Virus record (IMG/VR): IMGVR_UViG_2563366969_000004 | Span: 1-40,824 of that record | Length of the DNA: 40,824 bases | Source of the DNA: a virus | Taxonomy: Duplodnaviria > Heunggongvirae > Uroviricota > Caudoviricetes | Reading direction: 5' to 3' (one strand) | Shown here: positions 9,660 through 29,683 of the stretch, piece after piece | Layout: every line of letters starts with the position of its first letter | How positions within the stretch are numbered: position 1 is the stretch's first letter | Notes under the pieces: generated by a model | Database searches by the model: none | Told to the model about the DNA's origin: nothing | The model's input: only the letters and a program-made list of their open reading frames with translations | Made by a program: the position numbers and the translations under genes

Positions 9660-9671
9660 GTGACATGTCAC
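9660..9671. repeat. 12-bp perfect palindrome GTGACATGTCAC, copy 1
   Basis: Exact match; abuts terminator hairpin; overlaps stop codon of 9668..9964 gene. Confidence 0.7.
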
Positions 9672-9964
9672 GTCCCTTTTCTGAATGATAGCCATTCGAA
9701 AAATGATGACATTCCACCGCAGACAATAGCAAAGATGATCCCACCAAAGAAGAGAAGGCCAGCCTGCCACCACTCCCACCGCCATACATCCACAGCGCCA
9801 ACCATACCAACAATCGCTCCAACAAATGGAATATAGCTCACGATGAAAGCAATGGGGGCTGCAATTATCCAGTGCAATCCCCACCATGATTCAAGCCCAG
9901 CCATAATTGCTGCCAACTGAAAAAGACCAACGACGATATAAACAATGAATCCTATAGCTTGCAT
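9668..9964 (-). CDS. Small multi-TM membrane protein (98 aa), unknown function
   Basis: ATG 9962..9964 (complement) with SD AGGTGA; about 3-4 hydrophobic helices, Trp-rich loop. Confidence 0.5.
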   Translation of the reverse strand: MQAIGFIVYIVVGLFQLAAIMAGLESWWGLHWIIAAPIAFIVSYIPFVGAIVGMVGAVDVWRWEWWQAGLLFFGGIIFAIVCGGMSSFFEWLSFRKGT

Positions 9965-10160
9965 GTAGTCACCTAATTTACCCAGTAAAAATAAGAGGCC
10001 TCCCCTCAATAAGGCTTGCAACAAGAACTACTCCCTGCACAACAAAGATGAACCAGCAAATAGCTTGAGTCTGAGGGTTAAGAAAATATTTGTAGCGGTC
10101 AATAAATAACAATCCACCAGAAATTATCACACTCAAAATAATTAAAAACACAACACTTCC

Positions 10161-12635
10161 TTATTGCGGAGTGACATCCTGTGGTCGCCACCAGTATGTC
10201 TGGTTAAACTCTTTCTTCGAACGTTGCTCCATTTTACGCAAATAGCCTGGTGAAAAATACTCCTGCATCTGGTTAAAGATCATGTGATCGAGAGCCGCCT
10301 TCAAGTACCAGAGATTCGCACCAGGCATCAAACCTTTCCCCAGCTTCACCAGATCACCACCAGTCTGCTCACTCTTCCCTTCCACAGCATTTAACGGTAT
10401 GCCCTGAGCAATCTTCACTACGTCATCAACCAGACCAGCTACCGGGCCAAGCATCGACGCCAGCGCGCCGCTTCCGTACCTAGTGTGATCTGACAATAAA
10501 AAGTCACCGTAAAGGCCAAGACCACCACCTTTCAGTAGAGCACCAAGCCAGAATTTTGCGGCATCTTCTCCTGTCATCTCTCGAGGATTACGACCAGACG
10601 CAAGGTCGTTAAGTTGCTGCGACAAAGCGCCAAGAATGGTCGTACTGGCAATAAACGTCGCAATATATGCCGCACGCCCACCAGCAGACGGCATACCCAT
10701 AGCGCGTGACCAGTGACGCATAACAACCGAGATAGGGAACGATTTAAACAGGAAAACACTTCTCGTTAATTCACCTTTCCATGTTCCACGCTGAATACCA
10801 GAACCGGTTATCAGTTGCTCACGTGCTCCCGGTGTAATAACAGCCATATCAACTTCTTCAGTTACGGCACCGAGCAGTTTACGCATTGCCTCAAATTTCA
10901 CGCGTTCAGGCTCACCAAGATGTTTAACTGCTGAATCAGGGATACGCATAATGCTTTCCGGTGTCAGCATCGTATTATTACCGTTCCCCCAGTCCTCCTG
11001 TTTCGCCAGCTTCCATACGCTCCAGTCTGTGTCAGTAATCCCTTTGCTTTTCAGGATACGAAAATCAGAGTCATCGAGGCTACGAAGGTCTGGTGTCCGT
11101 GACACTACTTCTCCCAGGCTTCCCATCATGGTTACGCCATAGGCGCGCTTGTGCGCATCTGACCATGCTGTAAGCCCACTGGCACGCATTACCGCCGTTG
11201 CCGCCCAACGAGACACTGACGGCCCCATATTATCCATCGCCCAGCGGTTAACGCTGCCAAGTAGAGATTCCATCGCCAGACCAGCGCGGCGCGCCCGCGC
11301 AAGTTCTGTACGGTTCGTTGGGTCCATAGCTTCAAGCTGGTTGCGGAATAACTGGTTCATTGGAAGGTTGGTAACCTTCGCAGACAGATACATGGTTCCA
11401 AGATCAGAGAACGATGACAGCAACGCGGATCCGAGTCTGCTGGCAACCAGCCAGTTGCGGATATTGTCAGACCATCGCGCGATGTGCGGATTCGCTACAG
11501 GCTGTGTCTTTCCGGAAATAAAGTTGTACAGATTCTCTGTGTTGTTCGCCAGCCGCTCGACTTTACCGGTTTTACTCGGGTTAGCTGTTGCCGTTTCTGC
11601 CTTCACCTGATCAAGAAGAGAGCGGAAAACATGATCGGGGTTTGGGCCATATGTTTCCACCAGTGCAATATCTTTACTGATACCTTCCAGGTGACCGACC
11701 ATGATTTCCCATAGAGAGCGATCGCCATAAAGTTGCTGATATTGCAGATAGGAATCTGCATCTTTGAAATGTATCTGTCGTGATGCATTACCCCGGTTAG
11801 CACGTGCGCCGGAAATTCGCATTCCGGTATCAGTAAGCTTATTCAGCCCACCAGTAGCGATCGTGTTATAAGCCTCTCCAAGAAATGCAGACAACTCGGC
11901 ATCGTTCATCAGTTGTCCATCGACTCGGGTATAATATTTGCGATCCAGCTTACCTATAACATCGCTAACCCACTTATCCTTTGATACCGCCCCAACCTTT
12001 TCCATAGAATGATGTTGAGGGAGCCCCCAGTTTTCGAGATAGCCAATGTCCCCACCAGCATCATTAAACCGGCGGCGCAGTAGCTCTGTCACTTCTCTCC
12101 ACGCCTTAGCACCTTTTCTTGCTTTAGCATTGCCAGTATTTTGCCCTCGCATTTCATATACCAGGTCACGCACGCCAGCTTCATCTTCAAACAGGCCAAA
12201 AAAGCGAGGATCAACTGCTTCAAATGCCTCCTGCAATTGACTCAATGCATAATCACGAGTGGCTTTTGTTCTGGATTCAACAGAGAGGAAATTCGATTTA
12301 CCGTCTGCATTAAAAGCAATAGTACGGTTAAGAGCGCCAAGTTTCCCATCAGCCCCTTGATAGCTATTGATAAATTTATCCAATCTCTGACGTGCGGCTA
12401 TAGTGAGGGCCACACGACGTTTCTTTAATGCCGCTTCTCGCTGTAATTCTTCAGATGCCAATTGTGCTGCTCGATATAGCCGCTCTGATTCGGAAAGTTG
12501 TCGCCACGACATAGGGTCATCACGAGCAATGGAGCGCATATTTCGATAAATGCGGTCTTCAATGTTCTGTATTTCTCGCGCCGTTAACATGCGCTGCGCC
12601 GCCTGCTGAACCGCTTGTATACATTCCTGTCTCAT
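10161..12635 (-). CDS. Internal virion / DNA-ejection protein (large)
   Basis: 824 aa, last gene of structural operon, position and size as for podovirus core/ejection proteins. Confidence 0.6.
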   Translation of the reverse strand: MRQECIQAVQQAAQRMLTAREIQNIEDRIYRNMRSIARDDPMSWRQLSESERLYRAAQLASEELQREAALKKRRVALTIAARQRLDKFINSYQGADGKLGALNRTIAFNADGKSNFLSVESRTKATRDYALSQLQEAFEAVDPRFFGLFEDEAGVRDLVYEMRGQNTGNAKARKGAKAWREVTELLRRRFNDAGGDIGYLENWGLPQHHSMEKVGAVSKDKWVSDVIGKLDRKYYTRVDGQLMNDAELSAFLGEAYNTIATGGLNKLTDTGMRISGARANRGNASRQIHFKDADSYLQYQQLYGDRSLWEIMVGHLEGISKDIALVETYGPNPDHVFRSLLDQVKAETATANPSKTGKVERLANNTENLYNFISGKTQPVANPHIARWSDNIRNWLVASRLGSALLSSFSDLGTMYLSAKVTNLPMNQLFRNQLEAMDPTNRTELARARRAGLAMESLLGSVNRWAMDNMGPSVSRWAATAVMRASGLTAWSDAHKRAYGVTMMGSLGEVVSRTPDLRSLDDSDFRILKSKGITDTDWSVWKLAKQEDWGNGNNTMLTPESIMRIPDSAVKHLGEPERVKFEAMRKLLGAVTEEVDMAVITPGAREQLITGSGIQRGTWKGELTRSVFLFKSFPISVVMRHWSRAMGMPSAGGRAAYIATFIASTTILGALSQQLNDLASGRNPREMTGEDAAKFWLGALLKGGGLGLYGDFLLSDHTRYGSGALASMLGPVAGLVDDVVKIAQGIPLNAVEGKSEQTGGDLVKLGKGLMPGANLWYLKAALDHMIFNQMQEYFSPGYLRKMEQRSKKEFNQTYWWRPQDVTPQ

Positions 12636-12640
12636 TTAAT

Positions 12641-14443
12641 TTAACCTCTCAAGAAACACGCCACAGCGACATCAAACAGGCTGGAATCCTGTATTGCCTG
12701 CTCACTTTCCCTGTTCGCTTCATCCAGTGCTTCACGCGCACTGCGCGATTGTGGATTACCATCATCATCCAGCACGGTGATTATCATGTCAGGTGATTCA
12801 AGCAGCGAGTCTTCAGCTATGCGCAGATCAATATCTCCTGCCGGATCTGCCATCATTTTTTGTTCTGTCTGTTGCAATATCTTACCGGGCTCAAAAGGAG
12901 CTACTTCTTCTGGCGTCCTGACCTCTGCTGTTTTATAGAATGAAACAGCCTGAGCATTAAGTTCACTTTCTGCCTGCTGTCGTCGTGCCAGTTCTGCTCG
13001 AGCTTCAAAAAACTGACCTCCAGGCTCGTGCGGCGCCAACGCGTTACGAGAAAATTCCAGGCGTTCTTGTGCCTGCCGGATTCGTTGGTCAATATCGCGA
13101 AGTCTGGCCTGTTTATCTGATCGAGCACGAGATAAAGCCTTACCGCTACCGGTTGGCTCTTCTGCAAGAATTTGTGCGCGCTGTTCAGTGAGATTTTCAA
13201 TAATTCGTTGGCTATTAGCGATTTCAGACTGGTAAACCTTTCTATCGCCACGCGACAAAAGCTGCGCGGCCTGTTCTTCAAGCAACCGATTTTCTATAGC
13301 GCGCGCCGTTACTCCATCATCTACAGATGACAGAGCCTCATTAACTGCCTGAGACAGCAGACTCTTGCGCCCAGGAATTTCACTGAAAGATGCAGACTCA
13401 ACAATGCTGGCAACGTCTACAGGTCTCCCCTGGCTAACATCAGACATGGCTTTTCGCAGAGCCTGAATGTGCGAATTACGCGAAAGCACGTTGATCGGAA
13501 CGCCGGGAGCAATATCAATTTCAGCATGATGAGCGGCATTCGCCGCCAGTGCAGCATCAATATCAACTGGTGAAAAATTTGGTGCGCTTGTAGACTCGCC
13601 GCGAGAGTTAATAAATCTGCCGACACCACCAAACGCCACCCCAAGAACAGCATCAATAGCAATTGCCTGTCGATCCAACACATCATACTGGTTAGCCATT
13701 TCGCTATAGCCACCATCACGAAGCGTTTTTGCAGTAAGCCCACGCTGTGCCATACCGAACGCAATATTTGTACCTGCGGCATAGGCAATATCTGGCGTTG
13801 CACGTATTGCTGTTGCTGCGGCGCGTCGCACTGAACTTTCACCCGTCCGCGCAAGCTGAGCCGCCACACCTTCCGCCAGCGCACCACCAGCACGTAACCC
13901 GAGGCTCATAGGGATCAGTGTTCCGGCACCAGCAGTAATACCCTGCACTAATCCCGCTTCCTGCGCCGTCCTGAAATCAACACCCTGTGCTGTCAACCGT
14001 TCAAACTCAGAAAAACCCTGTAGAGAAGTTACCGCCGCAGCACCTCCGACCGGACCACCGAGCGTTGTACCGACAACAGCCTGCCCGCCCATATCGAACA
14101 ACCCATAAAGGACCTGCCCGGCGGTTCCGGTTGTCGCGGCATCAGGCGTCAGCCGCTTAACCTGCTGCTCTGCTAGTTTTCTCTGCTCAGCAATGTATGA
14201 AACTGAAGTGTCATTGAGCGAGGTGTTTTCGTTAACAAGCTGAGCAATCGGGGATACGATTTTATCCATCCCTGCCCATAGCAACTGATCTGGCTTTGCC
14301 ACCAGCCCGGAGTACAAACCAGACAATGCCGCTCCTACAGCATTGTCGAAAAAACCAACATCGCTGTTAAAGCCAACTGGATTTGATGCTGCTTCGTCAA
14401 GCTGCTGATTCTGGTTTACTGGATTAAGGCCAAAGTAACTCAT
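12641..14443 (-). CDS. Internal virion / ejection protein
   Basis: 600 aa, Ala/Gly-rich, translationally coupled to upstream gene. Confidence 0.55.
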   Translation of the reverse strand: MSYFGLNPVNQNQQLDEAASNPVGFNSDVGFFDNAVGAALSGLYSGLVAKPDQLLWAGMDKIVSPIAQLVNENTSLNDTSVSYIAEQRKLAEQQVKRLTPDAATTGTAGQVLYGLFDMGGQAVVGTTLGGPVGGAAAVTSLQGFSEFERLTAQGVDFRTAQEAGLVQGITAGAGTLIPMSLGLRAGGALAEGVAAQLARTGESSVRRAAATAIRATPDIAYAAGTNIAFGMAQRGLTAKTLRDGGYSEMANQYDVLDRQAIAIDAVLGVAFGGVGRFINSRGESTSAPNFSPVDIDAALAANAAHHAEIDIAPGVPINVLSRNSHIQALRKAMSDVSQGRPVDVASIVESASFSEIPGRKSLLSQAVNEALSSVDDGVTARAIENRLLEEQAAQLLSRGDRKVYQSEIANSQRIIENLTEQRAQILAEEPTGSGKALSRARSDKQARLRDIDQRIRQAQERLEFSRNALAPHEPGGQFFEARAELARRQQAESELNAQAVSFYKTAEVRTPEEVAPFEPGKILQQTEQKMMADPAGDIDLRIAEDSLLESPDMIITVLDDDGNPQSRSAREALDEANRESEQAIQDSSLFDVAVACFLRG

Positions 14444-16953
14444 TGCGGAATATCTCCGGAGAATCTCTGACGCTTCTGTGTCAGATCAAGAACAACGGGA
14501 GAACCATCATCTTTTAGCAGATAACCAGTACCAAGTTTCACCAGGTACTGACTATCGCCGTAACTTTGCAAACCATACTGACCAGGCGGTGTTTTTATCC
14601 CTGTGCCAACAACTTGTTCATTCCAAGCCTGATTAACCTGCTTATCGAATTGCTCTGCAGACATTCCCCACGGCAAAAGAACATTCCCCATTCCGTTATA
14701 GTCATGCACGCCACCTGTAGCTACGTTAACAGCCTGTTTCCAGATATCATTGTCAATTTCGCCTGATACCACGCCTTTTTTCGCCATCACACCAGCGTAA
14801 TAGTCCTTTGCGATCTCGTATGCCATTGATGCCCCCTGAGCATCACCAGCAAATGCATTCTTCACCATGTCAGAAAACTCAAGGCGAAGATCAGCATCTT
14901 TAGGCATCGGAATACCTTTCGCGTCATCAGTACCTTTACGAGCCGCCGCGCCAGCAAGAATTGTCTGCGCAGCGGTTTCTGGAGACACGGAAACATCCGG
15001 ATTAAACCAGTTTTTTTCTGCCAAAATACCACCTGGCTTATCCATCAGTATCCCGGCAACGGCAGCAGATGGAGCGTTGGCACTGATCTGCTGTAGTGCT
15101 GACATATACACCTGCCCACCACCAGTGCTCTGCCTGATGGTATCGAGATATGCTGCCTGTTGGGAAACGGGCGCATCACGAAAGAAAACACCGATCTGAT
15201 TGGCCTCGTCTTTGGAAAAGAACGTCAGTGGAGTGCCATATGACTTAGCAAGGTCACTGACCTGAGCAGCACGCAAGGCAACGCTCTGTCCAAAGTTATC
15301 CTTATTGCTCATGTCGATAGGCTTTGCCTGTCCGGCGGCAAGAGAGAACTGTACAGGATCAGCCTGTCGCTGCTTTATCACCTGACTTGCAGCCGACACA
15401 ACGTTGTCATAAAGAGCGGCTCGTGCCGCATAACCCTCCCCTGTCTCACCAGTATCCGGGCGTAATTGCTCAACATATGCTGTAATGCTGCTTGTCGGCA
15501 TGTTGCGGAAAGAGCCTATATACTGTCCGGCGATTTGCGTATTTCTGAACTCGGTATATCGCAGGTTTCCTTCTCTTACTCCATAAGCTGCAATAAAATC
15601 AGCCTCACCAGGTGGGTTAGGAAATTCAACGCCACGCATATACGCAGCTGTCGCATCGCGAACCTGGCTGTCAATCATCGTTTTATATTCAGCCTGCTGC
15701 TGCCGACGCAGTTGATCCGCCTGTCGCATAAAACTTGCCTGCGCCTCAGGAGATGCCGCATCGAATGCTGCATTACCGGTATAGCGTTTGGTGTTGGTTG
15801 GAATTGTTGATAAACCAAGTGCTGCACTGACACCAGCAGTTAACTGCTGATCACTGTATGGCTGGCTACCGTTCTCATGATGGATAATGGCTGCACAAAG
15901 CGCCTTCAGGGTATCAGGATTAGATGCATCGAGAGGCTCATCAGCAGAAACGCCAAGTTGTTCGCACACTGCTTTGATATACGACATAGTGTCATTTTTA
16001 TCAGTAGGCGGTGCCCAGCGATTAATTATCTCGCTGACGGTATCAATACCCTGCCTCTGATACGACATCAGGTTCCGCCCTAATGCACGAATCCCGTGTT
16101 CAGGTGTTTCGAATTTAGCAAATCGACCATCATCACCGGTCTGGCCTACCCACGGATTAGTTTTGCTGTATTCGAGATTTCCTGGGTTATTGTTGCGTAT
16201 GCCACGGGCACGCTCGGAAGAGTCACTATCTGCTACAGCACGGCGAGCTCCAGCAGCAGTATCACTTAACTCGCCATTACTTTGGATGAATGCGGTCGCA
16301 TTGTTTGCCGACCACTGGGACAATGCAGCATCAGCAACCTTCTCTTTAAACTCGATTTTCTTGGCCTGGATTTGCTCGTCACTCCAGCCATGTGCAATGC
16401 CGTAATCCTCAATTTGCTGGAAAGTTTGCTTATTAGCCAATACGTATGCGGCGTTGTCGCCATACAATGCTGCGGCATTTTTACCATTGTTCAGCAGCGT
16501 AGCCTGAAACTGGCCTTCTTCGTAGGCATTTATTTGCCCTATCTCGTGCCGCCCGGCCTGCGTAGTGAACTGAATGCGCTGCTGCTGCGCCTGCTGCATG
16601 AAAGCATTACGAGCCTGTTCATCCGGCAGCGACATAGCCAGTTGTTCGACCTGAGCATCAAACTGCTGCGTATACTCCTGACCTTTTCCAATAGCATTTT
16701 TCCCTTTCAGGTTAAGCAATCCTGTTTCAGGATTATTCAGCAGATCACTGCTTATCTGACTGAGGTTAAGAGATGCCTCCTGAGCCAGAGCGATATTGGC
16801 ACGCTGTTTTGCCTGACCAAAAACATCAATTGCCTCTGTCCCTGCCCGAACAAAAGCATCACCAATACCTGGCTGAGAAAACGTCTGCAAGCCTGCTGAC
16901 TGAACTCCACGGCTCTGAACCTGACGGCCGGATACTGTTGGTACGACTGGCAT
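14440..16953 (-). CDS. Internal virion protein, possibly with cell-wall-degrading segment
   Basis: ATG at 16951..16953 (complement) with SD GGAGG and TAATG coupling to upstream gene (the six-frame ORF start at 17028 overlaps the upstream gene by 75 nt); contains RNNNPGNL motif whose hydrolase assignment I cannot confirm. Confidence 0.55.
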   Translation of the reverse strand: MPVVPTVSGRQVQSRGVQSAGLQTFSQPGIGDAFVRAGTEAIDVFGQAKQRANIALAQEASLNLSQISSDLLNNPETGLLNLKGKNAIGKGQEYTQQFDAQVEQLAMSLPDEQARNAFMQQAQQQRIQFTTQAGRHEIGQINAYEEGQFQATLLNNGKNAAALYGDNAAYVLANKQTFQQIEDYGIAHGWSDEQIQAKKIEFKEKVADAALSQWSANNATAFIQSNGELSDTAAGARRAVADSDSSERARGIRNNNPGNLEYSKTNPWVGQTGDDGRFAKFETPEHGIRALGRNLMSYQRQGIDTVSEIINRWAPPTDKNDTMSYIKAVCEQLGVSADEPLDASNPDTLKALCAAIIHHENGSQPYSDQQLTAGVSAALGLSTIPTNTKRYTGNAAFDAASPEAQASFMRQADQLRRQQQAEYKTMIDSQVRDATAAYMRGVEFPNPPGEADFIAAYGVREGNLRYTEFRNTQIAGQYIGSFRNMPTSSITAYVEQLRPDTGETGEGYAARAALYDNVVSAASQVIKQRQADPVQFSLAAGQAKPIDMSNKDNFGQSVALRAAQVSDLAKSYGTPLTFFSKDEANQIGVFFRDAPVSQQAAYLDTIRQSTGGGQVYMSALQQISANAPSAAVAGILMDKPGGILAEKNWFNPDVSVSPETAAQTILAGAAARKGTDDAKGIPMPKDADLRLEFSDMVKNAFAGDAQGASMAYEIAKDYYAGVMAKKGVVSGEIDNDIWKQAVNVATGGVHDYNGMGNVLLPWGMSAEQFDKQVNQAWNEQVVGTGIKTPPGQYGLQSYGDSQYLVKLGTGYLLKDDGSPVVLDLTQKRQRFSGDIPQ

Positions 16954-17962: not shown

Positions 17963-20433
17963 CAGAATCCCCCAACAGTAAGGCGAGGAATAACGGCAAG
18001 AACAGACAGCGGCAACGGATCAAGCTGACGGATTTTTACACGTCCGTTTTTGCCCCAGTTACTGTCCAGTTTCACTTCTACTTTTCCGGTAGCATCATCA
18101 ACAGGATCATCGTAGAACTCGAATTCACGCTGTGGATATTCGTACCATTTACCGCCAGGCGTAGTCGCCCAGATGCCGCGGCTGGCATTCACAACCAGAG
18201 TAACGGAGGGGATCACCTGTTTTTTGTCCAGCAGCGTTTCCTGTCCGTTAATGTTGATATCCAGTGTTTCGAATTCAGCAGTTATTGGCAGGCCGATGTG
18301 CACAACAGCCCCAGGTGATTCCAGCGTGACGGCACCTCCGGAAACCACTTTCTGTGGTTCCACGTTCGCATCAGAGAGAATGTTTACGGTCTGGCCTTCA
18401 AGATGAGACAGGCCTCCAAATGTCCGGCGCGCCATCTGCCAGTTCGTGGTGGCCACATTCCTGAGGGATGGCGGGACGTTCCTGTTAGCACGAACCACTA
18501 CAGCGGTGTTGCTGGTTACAGAAATAATGTCGCAACGTAATTCTTTTGACACCTCATCGCCAGTATCAGGATCAGTTCCGGTATAAGGGAACTGTAGTTG
18601 CGCGCCGACATCACTACTGGTGAAGTACGCACCACCAGAAACACTGATTGTATATTCCGCGCGGTAATCCCATTCGCCAGAACCACCAGTGATGATCATC
18701 GTTCTGTCAGACGTATTTCTTCCATCATAGCTAAGGCCAGAATCAACAAAGAAAGCATCTTCATCGCTGGTAAATAAACGGCTGGACAGTCGCTCGATGT
18801 ATCTCACTGTTTGCCCGTTAACGGTTCGGTTAACGACGAAATACACCGCATCTTCATTGCCTTCGCTGATACTGCATGTGCTTTCATATTTTCCGGTACT
18901 GGATTGTGGTGCCCATGCAAAAACCTGCTGATCACGCAAATAGGTCATCACCAGTAATTTACCGTCATCACGAATGCAGAAGGCACTGGAGTAAGGGACA
19001 ATCGAGAAGCACCAGTCAACAATGCTGTGCTTCTGAAAAAGATGATTGGCAAGGATGGTCAGGTCGTTCCCCTGATAGCCGTCAACATCGAATGAGTAGG
19101 CCAGATCACGGACAACGCTGCCTTTCTCCTGGACGAACAGAGCAATATTCGCCACGGCAATTGGCGGGACGTTGCTTGAGCCATTTGATCCCTGAGAGCT
19201 GAATGCAAATGATGATGGGGTTAACACTTTGTTCTGGTCGCCGGTGATGACGTACTCACCTCCGGAAGTCAGTGCCACCAGCGAACCGACATCAATCAGG
19301 TGGCGGATCTCATTAACCTGACGCCCGGCATAGGTGTAGATAATTCTGTCGTCATCCTGCGTAGGATTGCTTTTGCCAAAATCCTTATAATCCCCGGTAC
19401 GGCTGGCCCAGATAGTCTGAGGAAACGCAGTCGATGCGGCGAAGTAAAGACGTTGTTGATAATAAACAACAGTGCCAGGATAACCATTAACACTGTTCCA
19501 GGCATATTTAGCCCATTTATAGCTGGCATTATCCTCGCCCACGACCTGCGAAGGGATATAGGAAATCACCTCGGCAGTTGCAGTAGTTCCATTTGCAGCA
19601 GTGATACGGGCAATGCCAAAACCACTGTGCAGATATTCCCACTCAATGCCAGTATCATCATCACCGGATCCGCCCCAGCCATCCCATGATGTGCCTTCTG
19701 TATGCGAAGGGCGCAAAGTACCTGTTTTGCCTACTGTAACGGCGCGATAGTAGTTACTGTCTGCACGGCGAATATCGCCAATCGACGTACTCTTACTGGT
19801 TTCCCATACCGGCACAGAATCCACTGCAGGCTGTTCCAGATAGAACAATTTGCCTACCTGCTCCGCGCCAAAAATAGAGGCGCTTGCCGTTAGCGTAATT
19901 GTCCCGGTGCTGGCGCTGGCATAAACCGTCACTGACTCGTCAATATTGATATCTTCAAATGGCCCGTTCTTCGTTACCACATCAACCAGTTGCCAGTTGT
20001 CATGCGCATAGCGGCGCAACTCTTTCGGCGGGTATGCCGGATGAACCAGCGTAAGCACGTCTGCGCTTTGCGTGAATTTAATTCGGAACAGATCGGCTTC
20101 AGTATATGGCGTGGCAATTTCATAAATAACATTGCTGCTGTTCAGCACCAACGCACCATCTTTGATAACGCGCATGTACTGGTGTCCAAACTCCAGAGCA
20201 TAAGTCTGAACCGTCGAGAACTGGAACGGGATCAGGCGGCATTTCCGATTTGGGTATTTGGCGGCACCGACAAAACGCGTACCAGGTCGATTCTCAACGC
20301 CGCCATACTGCCGCACGATAAAGTTATCGCACTTGCGCAATGCCACCTGGTACTTAGCCATGTCAATACGCCCGTACAACGACGGTCCAATCTCACCACC
20401 GGCAAAGCTGGGCTGGATCCAACTGATAGCCAT
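17962..20433 (-). CDS. Tail tubular protein B-like (T7 gp12-like nozzle / tail hub)
   Basis: 823 aa; N-terminal QPSFAGGEIGPS... resembles the conserved start of T7 gp12-family proteins; follows gp11-like gene. Confidence 0.6.
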   Translation of the reverse strand: MAISWIQPSFAGGEIGPSLYGRIDMAKYQVALRKCDNFIVRQYGGVENRPGTRFVGAAKYPNRKCRLIPFQFSTVQTYALEFGHQYMRVIKDGALVLNSSNVIYEIATPYTEADLFRIKFTQSADVLTLVHPAYPPKELRRYAHDNWQLVDVVTKNGPFEDINIDESVTVYASASTGTITLTASASIFGAEQVGKLFYLEQPAVDSVPVWETSKSTSIGDIRRADSNYYRAVTVGKTGTLRPSHTEGTSWDGWGGSGDDDTGIEWEYLHSGFGIARITAANGTTATAEVISYIPSQVVGEDNASYKWAKYAWNSVNGYPGTVVYYQQRLYFAASTAFPQTIWASRTGDYKDFGKSNPTQDDDRIIYTYAGRQVNEIRHLIDVGSLVALTSGGEYVITGDQNKVLTPSSFAFSSQGSNGSSNVPPIAVANIALFVQEKGSVVRDLAYSFDVDGYQGNDLTILANHLFQKHSIVDWCFSIVPYSSAFCIRDDGKLLVMTYLRDQQVFAWAPQSSTGKYESTCSISEGNEDAVYFVVNRTVNGQTVRYIERLSSRLFTSDEDAFFVDSGLSYDGRNTSDRTMIITGGSGEWDYRAEYTISVSGGAYFTSSDVGAQLQFPYTGTDPDTGDEVSKELRCDIISVTSNTAVVVRANRNVPPSLRNVATTNWQMARRTFGGLSHLEGQTVNILSDANVEPQKVVSGGAVTLESPGAVVHIGLPITAEFETLDININGQETLLDKKQVIPSVTLVVNASRGIWATTPGGKWYEYPQREFEFYDDPVDDATGKVEVKLDSNWGKNGRVKIRQLDPLPLSVLAVIPRLTVGGF

Positions 20434-21757: not shown

Positions 21758-22195
21758 TTAACCAGTTACTTTTGAGCGGATCGGATACGGCGTATTGGCA
21801 TCAACATCAAGATTGATACCCGCAGTGAATTTGCCAGCCGTTAGTGGGCCAGTTGCGACGGAGTAGTTAACACGCAGATATCGCTGAACACCGGCTGGCA
21901 CCTTTGCAGAAACAACTCGCTTACCTGCTGTCAGGGTGGCCTTTGCCAGTGCGCCACTATCATAAATAGTGGACCATGAGCTGTTATTCTCACTCGTCTG
22001 CAACTGGATGTTTACAGTTGCCTCACCACTTGCCGTGGCGGCTTCGTTAATCAGCACCCAAAACTCAAGCGGATAACCCACGCCGATATCGCGACGGTTT
22101 CCATCAATTGGACCGAGATCGATTACGTCAGTAGAAGCCGCGGTATTCGTAACCGCCTGAGCTTCGGAGAACATCAACAGTTTGTCGGTGATCAT
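21758..22195 (-). CDS. Capsid decoration / accessory capsid protein candidate
   Basis: 145 aa, Thr/Ser/Ala-rich beta-type composition, directly after major capsid gene with SD GGAGAAAG. Confidence 0.5.
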   Translation of the reverse strand: MITDKLLMFSEAQAVTNTAASTDVIDLGPIDGNRRDIGVGYPLEFWVLINEAATASGEATVNIQLQTSENNSSWSTIYDSGALAKATLTAGKRVVSAKVPAGVQRYLRVNYSVATGPLTAGKFTAGINLDVDANTPYPIRSKVTG

Positions 22196-22246
22196 CTTCT
22201 TTCTCCATTAGTGGGTCTGTTACGACCCACAGGTTAATAACAGGCG

Positions 22247-23239: not shown

Positions 23240-23247
23240 TTCCTCTC

Positions 23248-23949
23248 TTATTTGCCATAGAGCACTTCGGCCGCACTACGCTGGCCTTCATTACCACCGG
23301 TGACCATGCCATCTTCAGACATCGCCTTTCCGATTTTCACGAACGTTTTGACCAGATCAGGGTGATTACCCAGCCCGGTGGTGTTCAGATATTCTTTGAG
23401 CTCGGGTGTCCCGAACTGGTCAAGCGCACGCTGTGCGGCGCTAAGGTTAGAAATCAACTTGTCGCCACCAATTTCTTTGTCAGCTTTTACATCAGCAGCC
23501 CACTGCTCGGTTGTTTTCTGCCAGGCTTCTGCCTGGCGCTGCTGCACACCTGCCAGAATCTTCGGATAAGCATCAACCAGCTTTTGCGCTTGCTCGTTGG
23601 TCAGGTTTAGTTCTCGCGCCACCGGCTCGAATTCCTTCAACGCTTCTGTATCCAGCTCTACGCCTTCGGCAGCCTGAAACTCGTACTTCTCAGGCGCACC
23701 CTCTGGTTTATCGCCGCCCTTTTTTTCATCCTGCTTATCGTTTTCAGGCTTTTTGTCATCAGCAGGTTTATCGCCATCAGAAACAGGTTGTGGCTTATCA
23801 CCTTCCTGTTGTGATGGATCACCAACTGGAGCAGGGTTATCACCTGCAGGCGCTGACGGTTCTGACGCAGCCGGAGCTGCTCCACCATCGACTGGTTGCT
23901 CATTGCAAAGACGGCGATACAGCAAACGCTCAAATAAATTCATGATCAC
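23248..23949 (-). CDS. Scaffolding protein
   Basis: Acidic, Pro/Ala/Glu/Lys-rich low-complexity N-half, helical C-half; between portal and capsid genes. Confidence 0.6.
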   Translation of the reverse strand: MIMNLFERLLYRRLCNEQPVDGGAAPAASEPSAPAGDNPAPVGDPSQQEGDKPQPVSDGDKPADDKKPENDKQDEKKGGDKPEGAPEKYEFQAAEGVELDTEALKEFEPVARELNLTNEQAQKLVDAYPKILAGVQQRQAEAWQKTTEQWAADVKADKEIGGDKLISNLSAAQRALDQFGTPELKEYLNTTGLGNHPDLVKTFVKIGKAMSEDGMVTGGNEGQRSAAEVLYGK

Positions 23950-24242
23950 TCCTGTTCACTGGCCTCTTTGGCCATCTTCAAATACTGTTCAGGGCAATGC
24001 GCCATAACGCGCTGAAACAGTTCCAGCGCCAGATTGCGTTGCCCCTCATTAAATGCCATTGCCATAGCATCCATCGGAGAGATAGCGGAAAACACCCGGC
24101 CTTTCTCCAGCACCGACCAGACAACGCGACGCCCCTGTTCACTGCTCATGACAAAGCGAATGTCATCAATTTCACGCTGTGCCATGTCACGTTGCTTACG
24201 GGCGTTTTCTTCTTTCAGTTGATCGTCTTCGTAATCTGTCAT
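23946..24242 (-). CDS. Hypothetical protein in head module
   Basis: 98 aa, acidic, translationally coupled between portal and scaffold. Confidence 0.5.
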   Translation of the reverse strand: MTDYEDDQLKEENARKQRDMAQREIDDIRFVMSSEQGRRVVWSVLEKGRVFSAISPMDAMAMAFNEGQRNLALELFQRVMAHCPEQYLKMAKEASEQE

Positions 24243-25918: not shown

Positions 25919-25932
25919 TTCAATGACTCCGG

Positions 25933-26139
25933 TTACTGACCAAGCAGCGTTTTACCGCTGGTATTAGCGGTTGATGTGTCGCCCTGAGAACCGGTAAGCA
26001 GCGTAGAACTACGACCAGCAGCAGCGCGACGGCGACGTGTTTCTTCGTCGCGGGCATCAACAACGGCGGCATCCTGCTCCTGTGGTGCTGCCTGAACTTC
26101 TGGTGTTGCAGGCACTGATGGTGAGCTACCCATGCACAT
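25933..26139 (-). CDS. Small hypothetical protein upstream of portal
   Basis: 68 aa, SD GGAG 9 nt upstream of ATG; low complexity. Confidence 0.35.
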   Translation of the reverse strand: MCMGSSPSVPATPEVQAAPQEQDAAVVDARDEETRRRRAAAGRSSTLLTGSQGDTSTANTSGKTLLGQ

Positions 26140-26229
26140 ATCAATGACTCCGTACGCAATTAAATTATTACCAATTTAACCACATATGATTTATTTATCG
26201 TAGAAGGTTGACATTTAACGCGTTAATTA

Positions 26230-26244
26230 TTACCTTTCAGGTAA
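26230..26244. promoter_or_regulatory. TTACC-N5-GGTAA palindrome, copy C
   Basis: ATTACCtttcaGGTAAC; TTGACA hexamer at 26208..26213 just upstream; about 320 bp upstream of tRNA. Confidence 0.5.
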
Positions 26245-26566
26245 CCAAAGGGCTCATTCTGGTTACTAACCTGACTGGCTTGTCGTTAAATTAAACAGGT
26301 GGAGTGAGCTTTTATTTTGAGCAGTACGGCGTATGGCACATGCGCCGATAGCGGTCTGGATACGTTTAAGGGGCACCCTCCCTGGCTGTGGCAAACGAAC
26401 CAGGTAGCCGGAATGTGCAAGTCGAGCGGTTTTATTCCGCGCACGGGGATTCACCATCCCGGCGATTCGGTGTGACGCCTCGGAAGAGACGAGGGTACAA
26501 CGATGAGAGCATTTATGGAGCCGCGACAAAGTGTGGCGCCTTAACAGGCTAAGTGCTCTCAGCGTT

Positions 26567-26643
26567 GTGGCATTAGCTCAGTTGGACAGAGCAACCGCCT
26601 TCTAAGCGGTTGGTCGCAGGTTCGAATCCTGCATGCCACGCCA
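26567..26643 (+). tRNA. tRNA-Arg (anticodon UCU), phage-encoded
   Basis: Cloverleaf folded by hand: acceptor GTGGCAT/ATGCCAC, D-arm GCTC/GAGC, anticodon stem ACCGC/GCGGT with loop CTTCTAA, T-arm GCAGG-TTCGAAT-CCTGC, discriminator G and encoded CCA. Confidence 0.9.
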
Positions 26644-26686
26644 GAATCACGCCTAAGGACCGTGATGCCAGAAGTTCCAGGTGCTT

Positions 26687-26728
26687 GGCGGTGATGGTTT
26701 CCCTTGAAGGACTATCACCGCCCTTTTT
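26687..26728 (+). terminator. Long-loop hairpin with T-run downstream of tRNA
   Basis: GGCGGTGAT ... ATCACCGCC (9-bp stem, 18-nt loop) followed by CTTTTT. Confidence 0.4.
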
Positions 26729-26806
26729 ACAGCAGGACGCCATTGCGATGACTTCATGCTGTAAACCAGTACAGCCACGGAAGGCATAACTCATTGCTTC
26801 CAGTTC

Positions 26807-26829
26807 GCCCGGTTCGCCGGGCATTTTTT
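26807..26829 (+). terminator. Rho-independent terminator
   Basis: GCCCGG-ttcg-CCGGGC followed by ATTTTTT. Confidence 0.6.
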
Positions 26830-26840
26830 AAGGTGAGATC

Positions 26841-27263
26841 ATGAAGACAATTGATATGTTGGCTAAGTATCTAAATGAATGGCCATTAAAATATTCTCGT
26901 ATCGTTCAGGCTGAAGACTGCATTTTTTATGGCGTTTTTGCTGGTAATGAAATGCATTACGAAGTAATTCAGAGTGAGGGACTGGCCGGGTTAACTCTTA
27001 GCGAAGACCATGGTACTAGCGTTACGTACCATGACTGGATTTCAGCGCAGAAAACTGAAATGGAAAAAGGCAATGTGTTTGATATTTCTCGCGCTGTATA
27101 CGCCAAAGAAAAAAGTGATGATGATTACATGCGCGAAAACTTATACAACATGAAGTTACAATGCCTGGCTGAAGTGCTTAGTAAAAGATCTTTACTTGAT
27201 GTGGTTGGTGCTGAGCAGGACGCCAAGGCAATCAACGCCGCATTCGATAAAATAACCTTCTAA
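26841..27263 (+). CDS. Hypothetical protein (140 aa), moron between terminase and portal
   Basis: SD AAGGTGAG upstream of ATG; AT-rich by eye; opposite strand to flanking late genes; own terminator. Confidence 0.6.
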   Translation: MKTIDMLAKYLNEWPLKYSRIVQAEDCIFYGVFAGNEMHYEVIQSEGLAGLTLSEDHGTSVTYHDWISAQKTEMEKGNVFDISRAVYAKEKSDDDYMRENLYNMKLQCLAEVLSKRSLLDVVGAEQDAKAINAAFDKITF

Positions 27264-27267
27264 CGCC

Positions 27268-27279
27268 GTGACATGTCAC
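27268..27279. repeat. 12-bp perfect palindrome GTGACATGTCAC, copy 2
   Basis: Exact match 5 nt after stop of 26841..27263 gene and 5 nt before terminator hairpin. Confidence 0.7.
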
Positions 27280-27284
27280 AATCA

Positions 27285-27308
27285 GCCCGCCGATTCGCGG
27301 GCTTTTTT
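27285..27308 (+). terminator. Rho-independent terminator
   Basis: GCCCGC-cgattc-GCGGGC followed by T6; overlaps stop of large terminase gene. Confidence 0.65.
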
Positions 27309-28782
27309 ATGCAAAAGGATCATAGTCTGTGATGGCTTTGCCTTGCTGGTTCTGCTGCCCGGGAATTCGCAGACGCTTCGACACAGGGAACGCAAACGTC
27401 AGCAGTAGCGCATCGCCTTTACCAGGAGAACGCCCAAGTCGCTCTTTGATATCTTCCTTCGGTTCGATAACGATTTTACCGTCCACGCGAACTTTGTACT
27501 CTGCCGTCGACAGGTCGTCCGCTGTTTCCTGGTCATCCAGCATGCCGCCGAGCCTCAGCCATGTCTTGCATGAGTTGAACATCTCCCCACGCTTGTTGAG
27601 CATCTGCGGGTCAGTAGACGCGCCACCGAACGGAACAAGTTGCCATGTACGACCCCAGCCGTCACCGATTGACTTCAAACCGGTTCCGTAACCGAAGTCG
27701 ATGAACACCGCGTCAGCCTGATACTGGTCTTCAAAGTCAGCGATACGCTTCGCCATAATCAGATCGTCGGTAGTCTTGTTGCCAGTCCACAGCACCTTAC
27801 TGTGTAGCCCCTGCCGCAGGTATATCACCGCGTCATCAACGCCGGAGTATGCCGGGTCAACGCCGATTATCACCGGAGCATGTGCCACCTGCGCAGCGGT
27901 TACCACCCGTTTCATTGCCTCGTCAGTAAGACCGGTAGGGATAAACTGCAATTCAGATGCATCAGGGAATATGCCGCGCACACGGATTTTAACGAAGTCG
28001 CTGTCTTCCCCGTAGTCATCAACCCATTTCTGCAACTGCTGTTTGTTAGTGCCTTCCACCGTTCGGCTGTCAATCTGCGCAGTTTTCCAGCGGTGTTTAT
28101 ATTTGCGGAAACATTCGCGGAAACGTCCGGTATTACGCGTCGGGTTTCCGAACGCCACCCAGATAATCTCAGTGTCTTCGTCCGTTAGTGCACCCTCGGC
28201 AACTTCCCACACCAGATCCGCAATGTTCGACGCTTCATCGAATACCACGATGATGCGTTTGCGCTCGTTGTGTAGTCCGGCGAATGCCTCAGTGTTGTGC
28301 TCAGACCAGGGGATTGCGTCAGCTCGCCACCGCTTGTCGTGTCCAGGATCATTGCTGTACATCGCGGTAGCGGTACAGGTAAACCAGTCTTTCGTGATAG
28401 CAAGGTTCGACCACTTGATAATTTCCGGCCAGGTCTTCGTTCGTAGCTGGTTGTCGGTGTTGGCGGTCACCACAACCTTACAATCCTCGCAAGTGGACAT
28501 GCCCCAGTTGATCAGCATTGAGATGAATGCGGATTTACCAATACCGTGACCAGAAGCGCGTGCCAGCATAAGCGGCTGATAACGCGTCTCTGGATTCTGC
28601 AGGTGATCACGTATCTCTCGGAACGCATCGGCCTGCCACTGACGTGGACCGGTAGCATGTGCCAGTTCAGTCCCCTCTTCCCCCCAAGGGAACGCATAGA
28701 GGGCATAGCCAAGCGGATCGTGAGTGAACCCTGCAATATCTTCGATTAACTGCTCTTCAGGAGATAACGCTGCATCTGTCAC
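27307..28782 (-). CDS. Terminase large subunit
   Basis: 491 aa; Walker A-like GHGIGKS; C-terminal nuclease-type acidic motifs (VDPAYSGVDDAVI); directly downstream of small terminase. Confidence 0.85.
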   Translation of the reverse strand: MTDAALSPEEQLIEDIAGFTHDPLGYALYAFPWGEEGTELAHATGPRQWQADAFREIRDHLQNPETRYQPLMLARASGHGIGKSAFISMLINWGMSTCEDCKVVVTANTDNQLRTKTWPEIIKWSNLAITKDWFTCTATAMYSNDPGHDKRWRADAIPWSEHNTEAFAGLHNERKRIIVVFDEASNIADLVWEVAEGALTDEDTEIIWVAFGNPTRNTGRFRECFRKYKHRWKTAQIDSRTVEGTNKQQLQKWVDDYGEDSDFVKIRVRGIFPDASELQFIPTGLTDEAMKRVVTAAQVAHAPVIIGVDPAYSGVDDAVIYLRQGLHSKVLWTGNKTTDDLIMAKRIADFEDQYQADAVFIDFGYGTGLKSIGDGWGRTWQLVPFGGASTDPQMLNKRGEMFNSCKTWLRLGGMLDDQETADDLSTAEYKVRVDGKIVIEPKEDIKERLGRSPGKGDALLLTFAFPVSKRLRIPGQQNQQGKAITDYDPFA

Positions 28783-29384
28783 TGATTGCCATCCTGACGT
28801 TCTTTCAGTCTCTTCCTGGCTGCCGCTATGCGATCAGCAATTGTCACATTCACATTAACATCCAGGCGTTCTTTGAATGCATTGACATCGACGTGCTTAC
28901 CAATCAGTTCGAGGTTCTTCACCTTGTCAGGCCATTTAATTTTTTTGAGGATTGTCTCTATCGAATCCTCGTCCATGTTCATGATGGTCGATGACAGATC
29001 AAAGCCGCTAAGCGTAGTGCGCCAGATTTTCGGCCACTCGCGGATTGGCTTAAGGCTCCCATCGTCGTTGAGGATATCAATCACGTCCATCTGGTCGATC
29101 TCCACCAGGCGCATGAGAACGTAATCAGCACTGACGCGCATTCGTTTGTTGCGCTCCTCCATCAACTCGGCAATCCGTTTCTGAATGCGTTCATCGCGCA
29201 TCATGACACTGGCTTTAACTGCCGCTGTATTTGGGGAGAATCCTGCATTAATCGCAGCCTGAGTCTGATTTTCAGGCGTTTTGATGTATGACTGGCAATA
29301 AGCCTCCTGCATTGCTGTTAGTGGCTTAAATTGCGTTGATTTGCGTTTATAGGTTTTAGGTTCAGCAGGCATCATAACCACCAT
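28779..29384 (-). CDS. Terminase small subunit (Terminase_2-like)
   Basis: LTAMQEAYCQSYIKTPENQTQAAINAGFSPNTA matches conserved N-terminal HTH of the small-terminase family; start uncertain (in-frame ATGs at 29384, 29375, 29372; the six-frame ORF starts at TTG 29453). Confidence 0.65.
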   Translation of the reverse strand: MVVMMPAEPKTYKRKSTQFKPLTAMQEAYCQSYIKTPENQTQAAINAGFSPNTAAVKASVMMRDERIQKRIAELMEERNKRMRVSADYVLMRLVEIDQMDVIDILNDDGSLKPIREWPKIWRTTLSGFDLSSTIMNMDEDSIETILKKIKWPDKVKNLELIGKHVDVNAFKERLDVNVNVTIADRIAAARKRLKERQDGNQ

Positions 29385-29449
29385 GGTAATAGTTACCGTT
29401 GTGGTAATAGTACCATGCAAAATAAAGCCGCCATAGTTGGCGGCAGTAT

Positions 29450-29662
29450 TCAAAGTCCATCAAATTCATCGTAAAAACTCTCGTCAAGATACCCTTCCCA
29501 TTTACCGCGAATGAAAATTACATCCTCGCCGCAAGGGTGCTGACTGTCGATAACTATATCCCTCCTGGCGCAACCATACTTATGCATGAGAAATTTAACC
29601 TCTTTCGGAAAATTTGCTGAGTTATCTCTCATATCTTCAAGGTCGTAGCGTATTTTTGGCAT
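29450..29662 (-). CDS. Small hypothetical protein (70 aa)
   Basis: ATG at 29660..29662 (complement) with SD GAAGGTG; palindrome copy 3 lies just upstream. Confidence 0.4.
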   Translation of the reverse strand: MPKIRYDLEDMRDNSANFPKEVKFLMHKYGCARRDIVIDSQHPCGEDVIFIRGKWEGYLDESFYDEFDGL

Positions 29663-29671
29663 AACACCTTC

Positions 29672-29683
29672 GTGACATGTCAC
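29672..29683. repeat. 12-bp perfect palindrome GTGACATGTCAC, copy 3
   Basis: Exact match immediately upstream of the SD of 29450..29662 gene and overlapping the end of 29680..30021 gene. Confidence 0.7.

Follow-up and report, generated by a model that had tools for sequence, protein, structure and literature searches.

Lambdoid 'boundary sequences' and T4-type PeSL (promoter-stem-loop) cassettes are regulatory cassettes that drive modular shuffling, and roadblock repressors, such as LacI at O2 or CodY and CcpA, have their site inside or at the end of the transcribed unit. The REP elements of enterobacteria (~35 bp) are palindromes at operon 3' ends or between convergent genes, near terminators, while the ribbon-helix-helix (RHH) repressors (P22 Arc and Mnt, CopG, omega, and the ParD and TacA antitoxins) bind promoters upstream of their own operons. 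MatP is present in the Enterobacterales, Vibrionales, Aeromonadales and Alteromonadales. In E. coli it organises the Ter macrodomain of the chromosome and unloads MukBEF (PMC12756933, PMC8669397), and the consensus of its site, matS, is the 13-bp sequence GTGACRNYGTCAC (PMC6907758).

The palindrome analysed here belongs to an epsilon15/phiV10-type (Uetakevirus) prophage of E. coli, integrated beside guaA and outside the Ter region (PMC9782041). In the window, by which is meant the whole stretch of 40,824 nucleotides, the 12-bp palindrome GTGACATGTCAC has exactly three copies, as the first-pass annotation had reported; dinucleotide-preserving shuffling of the window (n=100) gave a mean of 0.01 copies, and 0/100 shuffles reached three. 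The palindromes and the features around them are:

6966..6983, minus strand, second AGGCCGC-N4-GCGGCCT terminator, without an adjoining palindrome
9642..9659, minus strand, intrinsic terminator hairpin AGGCCGC-TTTC-GCGGCCT with T-tract, abutting copy 1
9660..9671, palindrome copy 1, closing the virion-gene operon and abutting the terminator hairpin
9668..9964, minus strand, 98-aa membrane-protein gene (PHROG 3075), terminating in the TGA of copy 1
24179..24190, copy with a single mismatch, GTGCCATGTCAC, within a gp5-like ORF
26841..27263, plus strand, 140-aa moron gene (PHROG 4846), with a TAA-cgcc-palindrome-terminator unit at its 3' end
27268..27279, palindrome copy 2, bounded on one side by the TAA of the plus-strand 140-aa moron and on the other by the bidirectional terminator after the TerL stop
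27284..27303, plus strand, terminator hairpin of the moron transcript, with copy 2 lying 4 nt upstream
29374..29408, two tandem repressor-type operators (ATTACC-N5-GGTAAT family), placed between the terminator and the ATG of terS (29372)
29427..29444, minus strand, terminator of the early-right unit (gp49-family gene and 70-aa gene)
29450..29662, minus strand, 70-aa accessory gene (PHROG 1541), an insertion immediately following copy 3
29672..29683, palindrome copy 3, cGTGACATGTCACa, holding the TGA of the gp49-family gene
29680..30018, minus strand, gene for the 112-aa RHH and Cys-rich protein, the proposed binder of the motif

At all three sites, in the window as in epsilon15, the order is stop codon, palindrome, terminator. 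The TGA at 29680-29682, within copy 3, is the stop codon of the gene for the 112-aa gp49-like protein, a feature that the first-pass annotation did not contain; its placing of this copy just upstream of the small gene before the terminase genes was correct, the distance being 9 nt to the ATG (29662) of the 70-aa gene that precedes terS. That gene is missing from phiV10, epsilon15 and APEC E16002, and in epsilon15 and phiV10 a hairpin matching 29427-29444 comes 22-45 nt after copy 3. Copy 1 had been described as lying between gene ends and next to a terminator: the adjacency stands, the hairpin at 9642-9659 following immediately downstream in the direction of late transcription, but the simple intergenic location does not, since TGA 9668-9670 within copy 1 is the stop codon of the PHROG 3075 gene. 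The recurrence of the stem AGGCCGC-N4-GCGGCCT at 6966-6983 and 9642-9659 was likewise found as claimed, and the two hairpins flank a 2.66-kb accessory island (6984-9641). Copy 2 does adjoin a terminator, the hairpin at 27284-27303, which on the opposite strand doubles as a weak terminator after TerL. The palindrome itself was considered as an intrinsic terminator and rejected, because its folding energy (-1.2 kcal/mol) equals that of shuffled sequences and the true terminators are those at 9642-9659, 27284-27303 and 29427-29444. These sites resemble REP elements in standing at operon 3' ends or between convergent genes near terminators, but they differ in length (12-14 bp), in sequence, in having a negligible RNA hairpin and, as set out below, in being carried by phages and tied to one phage gene.

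Conservation in related phages, which had been proposed as a check, is extensive. Epsilon15 carries the palindrome at 2142, 19517 and 39612, the same three places as in the window; phiV10 carries it at 2262 and 19493, with a one-mismatch third copy lying across the ends of the record when this is circularised; and it was found in most of 160 related contigs. Of 80 related loci, 70 have copy 1 in exact form and seven have it with a single substitution, the remaining three loci being incomplete, while copy 3 occupies the same position in 77 of 80 and keeps it in epsilon15, N15, YenM_201.16, AH07, a lambda-like phage and Paraglaciecola. At copy 2 the palindrome is exact in 51 of 78 loci and has one mismatch in about six; in 20 it is missing together with its terminator, so that copy 2 is dispensable. 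The further suggestion that the palindromes mark module junctions is borne out by their flanks. Copy 1 has at least four left flanks unrelated to one another, the PHROG 3075 gene being one, and these combine freely with at least three right flanks; past copy 3 the DNA of the window, phiV10 and epsilon15 diverges from the first bases after the palindrome; and accessory genes adjoin all three sites. In the locus L065 a PHROG 4846-type moron lies between the protease and major capsid genes with a palindrome on each side, and has the same TAA-cgcc-palindrome-terminator unit as copy 2 in the window, turned the other way round with respect to the late genes.

Comparison across phages showed that the 12-bp palindrome is the core of a general 14-bp motif, Y-GTGAC-NN-GTCAC-R, composed of two inverted YGTGAC half-sites separated by a strict 2-bp spacer of free sequence. 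Eight genomes contained 20 sites with the 2-bp spacer against 0.3 expected; in the same genomes all other spacers tried (0, 1 and 3-10) gave only one site, with no enrichment, and the everted arrangement of half-sites was almost lacking. A pyrimidine occupies position -1 in all 27 sites (54 half-sites), and the -1/+1 flanks obey this half-site rule (Y...R) with no base-pair covariation, C...A combinations being common. A symmetric motif of this kind, unconstrained at its centre, would suit a symmetric dimer, such as an RHH dimer that places a two-stranded sheet in the major groove. The motif is not printed anywhere in the searchable literature.

The 112-aa protein whose gene ends in copy 3 belongs to a family (PHROG 536) that includes epsilon15 gp49, phiV10 p55 and N15 gp46 and has members in many E. 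coli, Salmonella, Klebsiella, Yersinia and Vibrio prophages. In the model, an RHH fold whose N-terminal helix is basic is joined to a C-terminal tail rich in Cys, and the strand-helix-helix core of the CopG/Arc/MetJ superfamily is present. For the C-terminal half the comparison also covered TraR/DksA-type zinc-finger binders of RNA polymerase, in which a long helix comes before a four-Cys zinc ribbon. Against Pfam and NCBIfam nothing passed threshold, the weak matches being to RepB-RCR_reg, RHH_1, RHH_5 and YbfE (E 0.004-0.07), and none of the known families gives the protein a function. The neighbours of the gp49-family gene differ in every phage lineage and include neither a partner ATPase nor a conserved gene. 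A role as a type II RHH antitoxin was rejected, as no toxin-family gene adjoins the gp49-family gene in any lineage. The protein departs from known RHH repressors in its extra Cys-rich C-terminal domain and in having no adjacent toxin or partner gene, and its putative sites depart from theirs in lying at the 3' end or stop codon of the gene and at operon ends beside terminators, which is an unusual place for a phage regulator site.

The motif travels with this gene. In the phages examined, a homologue of the 112-aa protein was always accompanied by the motif, in one to three copies; they include ZF40, N15, P2-like Yersinia phages, a Vibrio phage, Pantoea AH07, a lambda-like phage and a Paraglaciecola prophage. 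ZF40 carries TGTGACATGTCACA three times, once at 3 bp past the stop of its gp22 homologue; N15 has three of the form GTGAC-TG/CA-GTCAC, one of them on the stop of gene 46; the motif is also present in YenM_201.16, Vibrio K303, Chlobot, YenM_42.18 and YDC107_1. Nearly always, the gene for the protein has one site within its 3' end and takes its TGA stop from that site, and in the Paraglaciecola prophage this holds despite 33% protein identity; the other sites are dispersed. Among 81 lambda-like control loci (1.50 Mb) the motif was found only in three pieces, from two contigs, that have a homologue of the gene, where it stands at the gene's 3' end. In the reverse test, 120 IMG/VR pieces chosen solely by TGTGACATGTCACA contained the gene in 32 cases (within a mean of about 9.5 kb); two or more sites were present in about 30. 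As the site on the gene's own stop codon would be inherited together with the gene, only the dispersed sites, about 17 in the genomes examined, count as independent evidence. In other phages some sites lie inside genes (ZF40 gp08 and gp12, N15 repA, the Q-like gene of AH07), and some precede a start codon by 9-25 nt and have no terminator close by, so that adjacency to a terminator is not a general rule. A boundary role is favoured by the order of stop codon, palindrome and terminator in the window and epsilon15, and by one site each in N15 and YDC107_1 that comes after the final gene of the repA operon and 24 nt before the -35 of the promoter that follows.

The association of motif and gene across many otherwise unrelated temperate phages leads us to infer that the palindromes are docking sites at which the 112-aa protein physically binds. 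On the sequence evidence we judge it somewhat probable that the three copies are its cognate sites and act as boundary elements at the ends of transcription units. The earlier proposal that they are binding sites for a phage regulator is thereby supported, indirectly but strongly, by the co-occurrence of motif and gene and by the absence of the motif from control phage DNA without the gene. A symmetric dimer of the protein would sit on the paired inverted YGTGAC half-sites, which in the window lie at three boundaries of the rightward and late transcription units: the ends of the early-right operon, of the terminase operon or moron, and of the virion operon. The most likely, though speculative, action of the bound dimer would be that of a roadblock or insulator, limiting read-through between units and into or out of accessory genes. 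The putative site would share with those of roadblock repressors a position within or at the end of a transcribed unit, and not at a promoter, but an intrinsic terminator adjoining downstream, as at the window sites, is not a described feature of roadblocks; we know of no citable established mechanistic precedent for a roadblock upstream of a terminator. Action as a sole late regulator of the Q or Ogr type was rejected: the gp49-family gene occurs alongside Q-like genes in N15, AH07 and Chlobot; in YenM_201.16 it is accompanied by a second small 'transcriptional regulator' gene where P2 encodes Ogr; and the late units of the window begin at repressor-type operators and not at palindromes.

The palindromes might instead be mainly recombination junctions, linkers carried along with terminators and moron cassettes and serving no protein. 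The free combination of flanks at copy 1, the divergence immediately after copy 3, the bracketed moron of L065 with its cassette unit shared with copy 2, the joint loss of copy 2 and its cassette in 20 of 78 relatives and the duplication of the terminator hairpin around the island at 6984-9641 would all be accommodated. Exchange by homology, however, leaves unexplained the invariant 5-bp half-sites, the pyrimidine at -1, the 2-bp spacer with its free centre, the retention of the stop-codon site at 33% protein identity and the co-occurrence with the gene among phages that share no other DNA, and 12 bp is short for homologous exchange. A scar would not be expected to preserve half-sites and spacer while the linked protein diverges so far, and the first-pass suggestion of recombination scars, taken as the primary nature of the sites, is accordingly disfavoured; this explanation is unlikely, and junctions may simply gather at conserved regulatory sites in permissive gaps between operons. 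Boundary and PeSL cassettes similarly combine a short motif with a stem-loop at the borders of accessory genes, with reassorting flanks, but the present element is a 14-bp palindrome of protein-binding type, tied to one trans-acting gene, and is not a promoter. That the element acts as RNA, as a small hairpin or protein-binding sequence at the 3' ends of mRNAs or between cistrons, governing mRNA stability or translational coupling to the next gene, is hardly probable at all. Sites do lie at stop codons in transcribed DNA and 9-25 nt before the next start in the window, N15, Chlobot, AH07, K303 and L065, and a palindrome would be present in transcripts of either strand; yet the 12-mer folds no better than shuffled sequence, positions -1/+1 lack covariation, and the modelled fold of the linked protein is typical of binders of double-stranded DNA.

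Two further possibilities were weighed. The sites could be bound by a host protein, either MatP or another nucleoid protein: the GTGAC/GTCAC half-sites and their inverted orientation are identical to those of matS, the hosts seen are all Enterobacterales, Vibrionales, Aeromonadales or Alteromonadales, the orders in which MatP is present, and Vibrio K303 has one true 13-bp matS-consensus site. Against this, all 27 sites have a spacer of 2 bp and not the 3 bp (RNY) of matS, the window contains no 13-bp matS even with one mismatch allowed, the motif is absent from 1.4 Mb of same-host phage DNA lacking a gp49-family gene, and matS sites cluster in the chromosomal Ter macrodomain, whereas the phage sites are on a prophage at guaA; we regard a host protein as highly improbable. 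Alternatively, the phage protein may bind the sites for a non-transcriptional purpose, organising, bridging or marking phage DNA in replication, segregation, packaging or nucleoid interference, preferentially in cis. Sites are few per genome (1-3) and dispersed, some falling inside genes such as N15 repA; the one beside the protein's own gene recalls cis-acting systems; and MatP, itself an RHH protein that reads identical half-sites, organises the chromosome and unloads MukBEF. This seems quite unlikely given that the gene has no partner ATPase or conserved neighbour, that the phages integrate or possess their own partition system (sopAB in N15), and that searches for homology with MatP turned up only the generic RHH fold. 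Alignment of the two by hhalign gave a probability of 0.2, MatP did not appear among the PDB sequences matched by HMM at E<=10, and the phage protein has neither the four-helix bundle nor the coiled coil of MatP, but a Cys-rich tail instead. It is very unlikely that the gp49/N15 gp46 family is a functional analogue or very distant relative of MatP, with half-sites one base closer, whose few sites, one always next to its own gene, mark phage DNA as different from host matS; were this so, the sites might serve to manipulate the nucleoid machinery, for example to keep MukBEF-type SMC complexes off phage DNA or to tether or bridge it, or might be used as protein-dependent terminators insulating units and morons. 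The identity of half-sites raises a possible interplay with host chromosome organisation.

The preferred reading, sites for the 112-aa protein at unit boundaries, matches a precise DNA motif to a family of phage proteins that is widespread but uncharacterised, and so offers a testable candidate pair of regulator and site. A boundary role, if true, would show how temperate phages insulate their late operons from accessory genes. The sites also flag points at which accessory genes are swapped, which should help in reading mosaicism in this phage group. The one-mismatch copy at 24179 is retained in relatives as coding sequence and is probably not a functional site. On the terS side of the boundary at copy 3, the next transcription unit begins at the tandem operators at 29374..29408.

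The window is a prophage of E. coli that belongs to the epsilon15/phiV10 type (genus Uetakevirus); a closely related E. coli genome carries the prophage next to guaA, a location published for phage ZX5 (PMC9782041). The first-pass annotation had pointed to three exact copies of a 12-bp palindrome, and these were recovered: GTGACATGTCAC occurs at 9660, 27268 and 29672 (copies 1, 2 and 3), against a mean of 0.01 in dinucleotide-preserving shuffles, of which 0 out of 100 reached three. Once mismatches are allowed, one copy is added in the window, GTGCCATGTCAC at 24179, within an ORF. The flanking sequences of the three copies are unrelated to each other, so that the 12-mer is not a piece of a longer repeat, and a chance origin is ruled out by the shuffles together with the conservation in relatives described below. 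The palindrome is real and biologically meaningful.

The minus strand of the window is the conventional forward strand of the phage. Read in that direction, each copy marks the end of a transcription unit, with the following terminator-like hairpins in the vicinity:

9642-9659, minus strand, terminator-like hairpin beside copy 1
27284-27303, plus strand, terminator-like hairpin beside copy 2
29427-29444, terminator-like hairpin downstream of copy 3 and the 70-aa gene

Copy 3 terminates the early-right operon, its TGA being the stop codon of the gene for a 112-aa protein (29680-30018, minus strand; homologue of epsilon15 gp49 and phiV10 p55), and is followed in order by an extra 70-aa gene, the terminator, two repressor-type operators and terS. 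Copy 2 lies past the TerL stop codon and a bidirectional terminator; a reverse-oriented accessory gene, the 140-aa moron, has its stop codon on one side of this copy and its terminator on the other. Copy 1 closes the long virion-gene operon. A small membrane-protein gene takes its stop codon from the TGA of this copy, and the terminator hairpin begins on the very next base. Along the transcript that ends there, the order at all three copies is stop codon, palindrome, terminator. The stem AGGCCGC-N4-GCGGCCT, also reported in the first-pass annotation to occur twice, is indeed present at 6966-6983 and 9642-9659. The moron region that separates TerL from the portal operon also contains a tRNA-Arg(TCT) gene followed by a terminator hairpin with a long, 14-bp stem (26687-26722; together 26567-26722).

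The palindrome is not the operator of the phage repressor, which is a different motif. ATTACC-N5-GGTAAT, annotated in epsilon15 as the 'repressor' binding site, is found in 15 copies with at most two mismatches between 2721 and 35390 (for example at 6610, 7730, 26229, 29374, 29392 and 35312), when 1.2 are expected. Just before terS there is a tandem pair, the portal operon is preceded by one copy, and the accessory island at 6984-9641 contains four, a placement which suggests that the late units are directly under repressor control. The start codon of terS is probably the ATG at 29372 (MPAEPK, as in epsilon15), downstream of terminator and operators; an alternative, longer ORF with a TTG start at 29453, as in the phiV10 annotation, would traverse both.

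Epsilon15, whose DNA is about 80% identical to the window, has the exact palindrome at three syntenic positions (2142, 19517 and 39612). In phiV10 there are two exact copies, and GTGACATGTTAC spans the record ends: the record opens inside the palindrome, immediately past the stop codon that ends its last gene, a start point that looks like an annotator's choice. Two things argue against a pac or cos site: there are three copies per genome, and phages of other packaging types also carry the motif. The pattern search in relatives that had been called for found the palindrome to be kept, as follows.

Conservation of the three copies in IMG/VR relatives
Copy 3: 80 loci in which the 112-aa gene has a close homologue; exact on the stop codon in 77 of 80; one of the three exceptions cut by a contig end
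Copy 2: 78 loci extending far enough; exact in 51, single substitution in about 6, absent with its terminator in 20
Copy 1: 80 loci; exact in 70, single substitution in 7 (four independent variants), 3 loci cut short

In the relatives without copy 2, other AT-rich reverse genes begin right after TerL. At copy 1, the palindrome and the terminator stem next to it show point changes about equally often; conservation of the 12-mer is therefore roughly on a par with that of a functional terminator stem, yet the sequence is not immutable. Among these loci, the 10 kb early region upstream of the 112-aa gene contains the palindrome only in L065, an epsilon15-like variant (IMGVR_UViG_2901726420_000012).

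The 112-aa protein belongs to PHROG 536, labelled 'transcriptional regulator', and tblastn against GenBank phages revealed homologues in phages with nothing else in common with epsilon15. The motif was present in every homologue-carrying phage examined.

Homologues of the 112-aa protein (with protein identity) and the sites in the same genomes
Pectobacterium myovirus ZF40: 68%; TGTGACATGTCACA three times, once 3 bp after the gene
N15 (gene 46): 38%; GTGAC-TG/CA-GTCAC three times, once on the stop codon
N15-like YDC107_1: 34%; all three N15 positions retained, flanks diverged
P2-like Yersinia YenM_201.16: 43%; GTGACGCGTCAC on the stop codon
P2-like Yersinia YenM_42.18: 37%; a single site
Vibrio K303: 34%; three sites, of which one precedes terS by 20 nt
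Pantoea AH07: 58%; two sites, one on the stop codon
Lambda-like Chlobot: 81%; a single site
Paraglaciecola prophage: 33%; GTGACAGGTCAC, on the stop codon

Eight genomes together contain 20 instances of GTGAC-N2-GTCAC where 0.3 would be expected, while all other spacers from 0 to 10 gave one match in total and the everted arrangement almost none. Since a pyrimidine precedes and a purine follows in all 27 sites tabulated, the motif is Y-GTGAC-NN-GTCAC-R; its central pair is free, even inside one genome. Two N15 sites, at 28550 and 33237, correspond to sites in YDC107_1 at 32995/40477 and 28630/44838, with positions kept and flanks diverged; one of the two is 24 nt upstream of TTGACG, in the promoter region of the antirepressor operon, and the other about 620 nt into repA. 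Each appears twice in YDC107_1 because the replication/antirepressor/protelomerase region forms a large inverted duplication within the deposited record (CP025712.1).

As a negative control, 81 lambda-like loci (1.50 Mb) were searched, and the 2-bp-spacer motif was found three times, in three pieces from two contigs. These are exactly and solely the pieces with a tblastn match to the protein family, and in them the motif lies at the 3' end of the gene. The reverse test started from DNA alone, with the first 120 IMG/VR pieces listed that contain TGTGACATGTCACA: within the mean of about 9.5 kb retrieved, the gene was present in 32 of the 120 and a second site in about 30, the chance expectation for such a second site being about 1%. 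Because the stop-codon site is passed on together with its gene, independent evidence comes from some 17 dispersed sites and the strict grammar of the motif. On these grounds the predicted pairing of the 112-aa protein with the motif is well supported and appears likely to be correct.

The same grammar bears on the mosaic junctions. The first-pass annotation had suggested that the copies may mark module junctions and, as an observation, this holds: accessory genes adjoin all three copies, and flanks reassort at the sites. At copy 1, four unrelated left flanks and three right flanks occur, in seven of nine possible combinations; after copy 3, the window, phiV10 and epsilon15 differ from the first bases on. 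In L065 two exact palindromes bracket a PHROG 4846-type moron (15504-16129) between the protease and major capsid genes, the first of them supplying the protease stop codon. This moron encodes 190 aa, the C-terminus of which matches the 140-aa moron of the window, and a TAA-cgcc-palindrome-terminator unit is common to the L065 moron and to copy 2 of the window, in opposite orientation. The 2.66-kb island at 6984-9641 (a 242-aa gene, a 241-aa gene and a DUF4760 gene) is flanked on both sides by the same terminator hairpin (6966-9659), and in island-less relatives palindrome and terminator are followed directly by the sequence that follows 6966 in the window. The further proposal that the copies are primarily recombination scars is not supported, because homology-driven exchange would not maintain the motif grammar in lineages without other shared DNA; we read the junctions rather as exchange at conserved functional elements in permissive gaps.

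No family in Pfam or NCBIfam was found for the 112-aa protein, and Foldseek against viral models returned a same-family fragment as the sole match. AlphaFold2, given 40 members of the family, predicts a fold (pLDDT 91.6) with a basic N-terminal helix in which R8 and R13 are invariant, an extended segment, two helices, a Cys-rich loop region and a short C-terminal helix. Two cysteines of this region are invariant in the family, one is nearly so and a fourth varies in position. The C-terminal half gives a weak HMM match to TraR (E 0.2), unsupported by fold searches. PADLOC gave no matches and there is no conserved partner gene, and a toxin-antitoxin or defence function was accordingly rejected.

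What the protein-site complex does we infer from the placement of the sites. The protein is not the general late activator of the phage: N15, AH07 and Chlobot carry Q-like genes in addition to the homologue, a P2-like phage that carries the homologue has another small regulator gene, placed at the Ogr position, and the late units of the window start at repressor-type operators. Nor is the palindrome a divergent -35-like element, despite the resemblance of GTGACA to TTGACA: the N15-type sites are unlike a -35, and, as judged by eye, only copy 3 of epsilon15 has a plausible -10 at 17 bp. The recurrent location is instead the transcription-unit end. The motif coincides with the stop codon of the protein's own gene in six lineages and stands before terminators at all three sites in both the window and epsilon15; in N15 and YDC107_1 one site follows the last repA-operon gene and precedes the -35 of the next promoter by 24 nt. 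A boundary role is therefore favoured, if tentatively, for a putative site-bound dimer, which would limit read-through from unit to unit and also between late genes and the morons convergent with them. A general link to terminators sits poorly with the sites that lie within genes, with the many that precede the next start codon by 9-25 nt and have no terminator, and with the dispensability of copy 2. A role of the palindrome at the RNA level is unlikely: as a hairpin it is energetically negligible, the 12-mer folding at -1.2 kcal/mol, the same as shuffles, and the flanking positions obey the half-site rule rather than pairing covariation.

The half-sites of the phage motif are those of matS, GTGACRNYGTCAC (PMC6907758), the E. 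coli site of MatP, which contacts matS through both a ribbon-helix-helix domain and a four-helix bundle (PMC12756933) and which unloads MukBEF (PMC8669397). However, the spacer is 2 bp rather than 3 bp, the phage sites lie outside the Ter region, the domain set of the phage protein is not that of MatP, no sequence homology between the two proteins was found, and there is no true matS in the window. Membership of the MatP/matS system thus fails on every defining feature tested, and a MatP-like reading of the phage protein is very improbable; the likeness of the half-sites may be a coincidence or a distant link. Small ribbon-helix-helix repressors with symmetric operators are the closest functional kind, from which the phage case differs in its site placement and its added Cys-rich domain. 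A full-text literature search found the motif and its variants in no relevant paper, and the papers found on regulation in Uetakevirus deal solely with the repressor, the antirepressor and the integrase. The probable regulator-site pair is widespread in temperate phages of enterobacteria and their relatives and undescribed in the literature searched, and is unusual in the placement of its sites and in their likeness to matS. Vibrio phage K303, which has three 12-bp sites, also contains one 13-bp match to the matS consensus, GTGACACCGTCAC at 19491-19503, the TGA of which is the stop codon of gene 0027.
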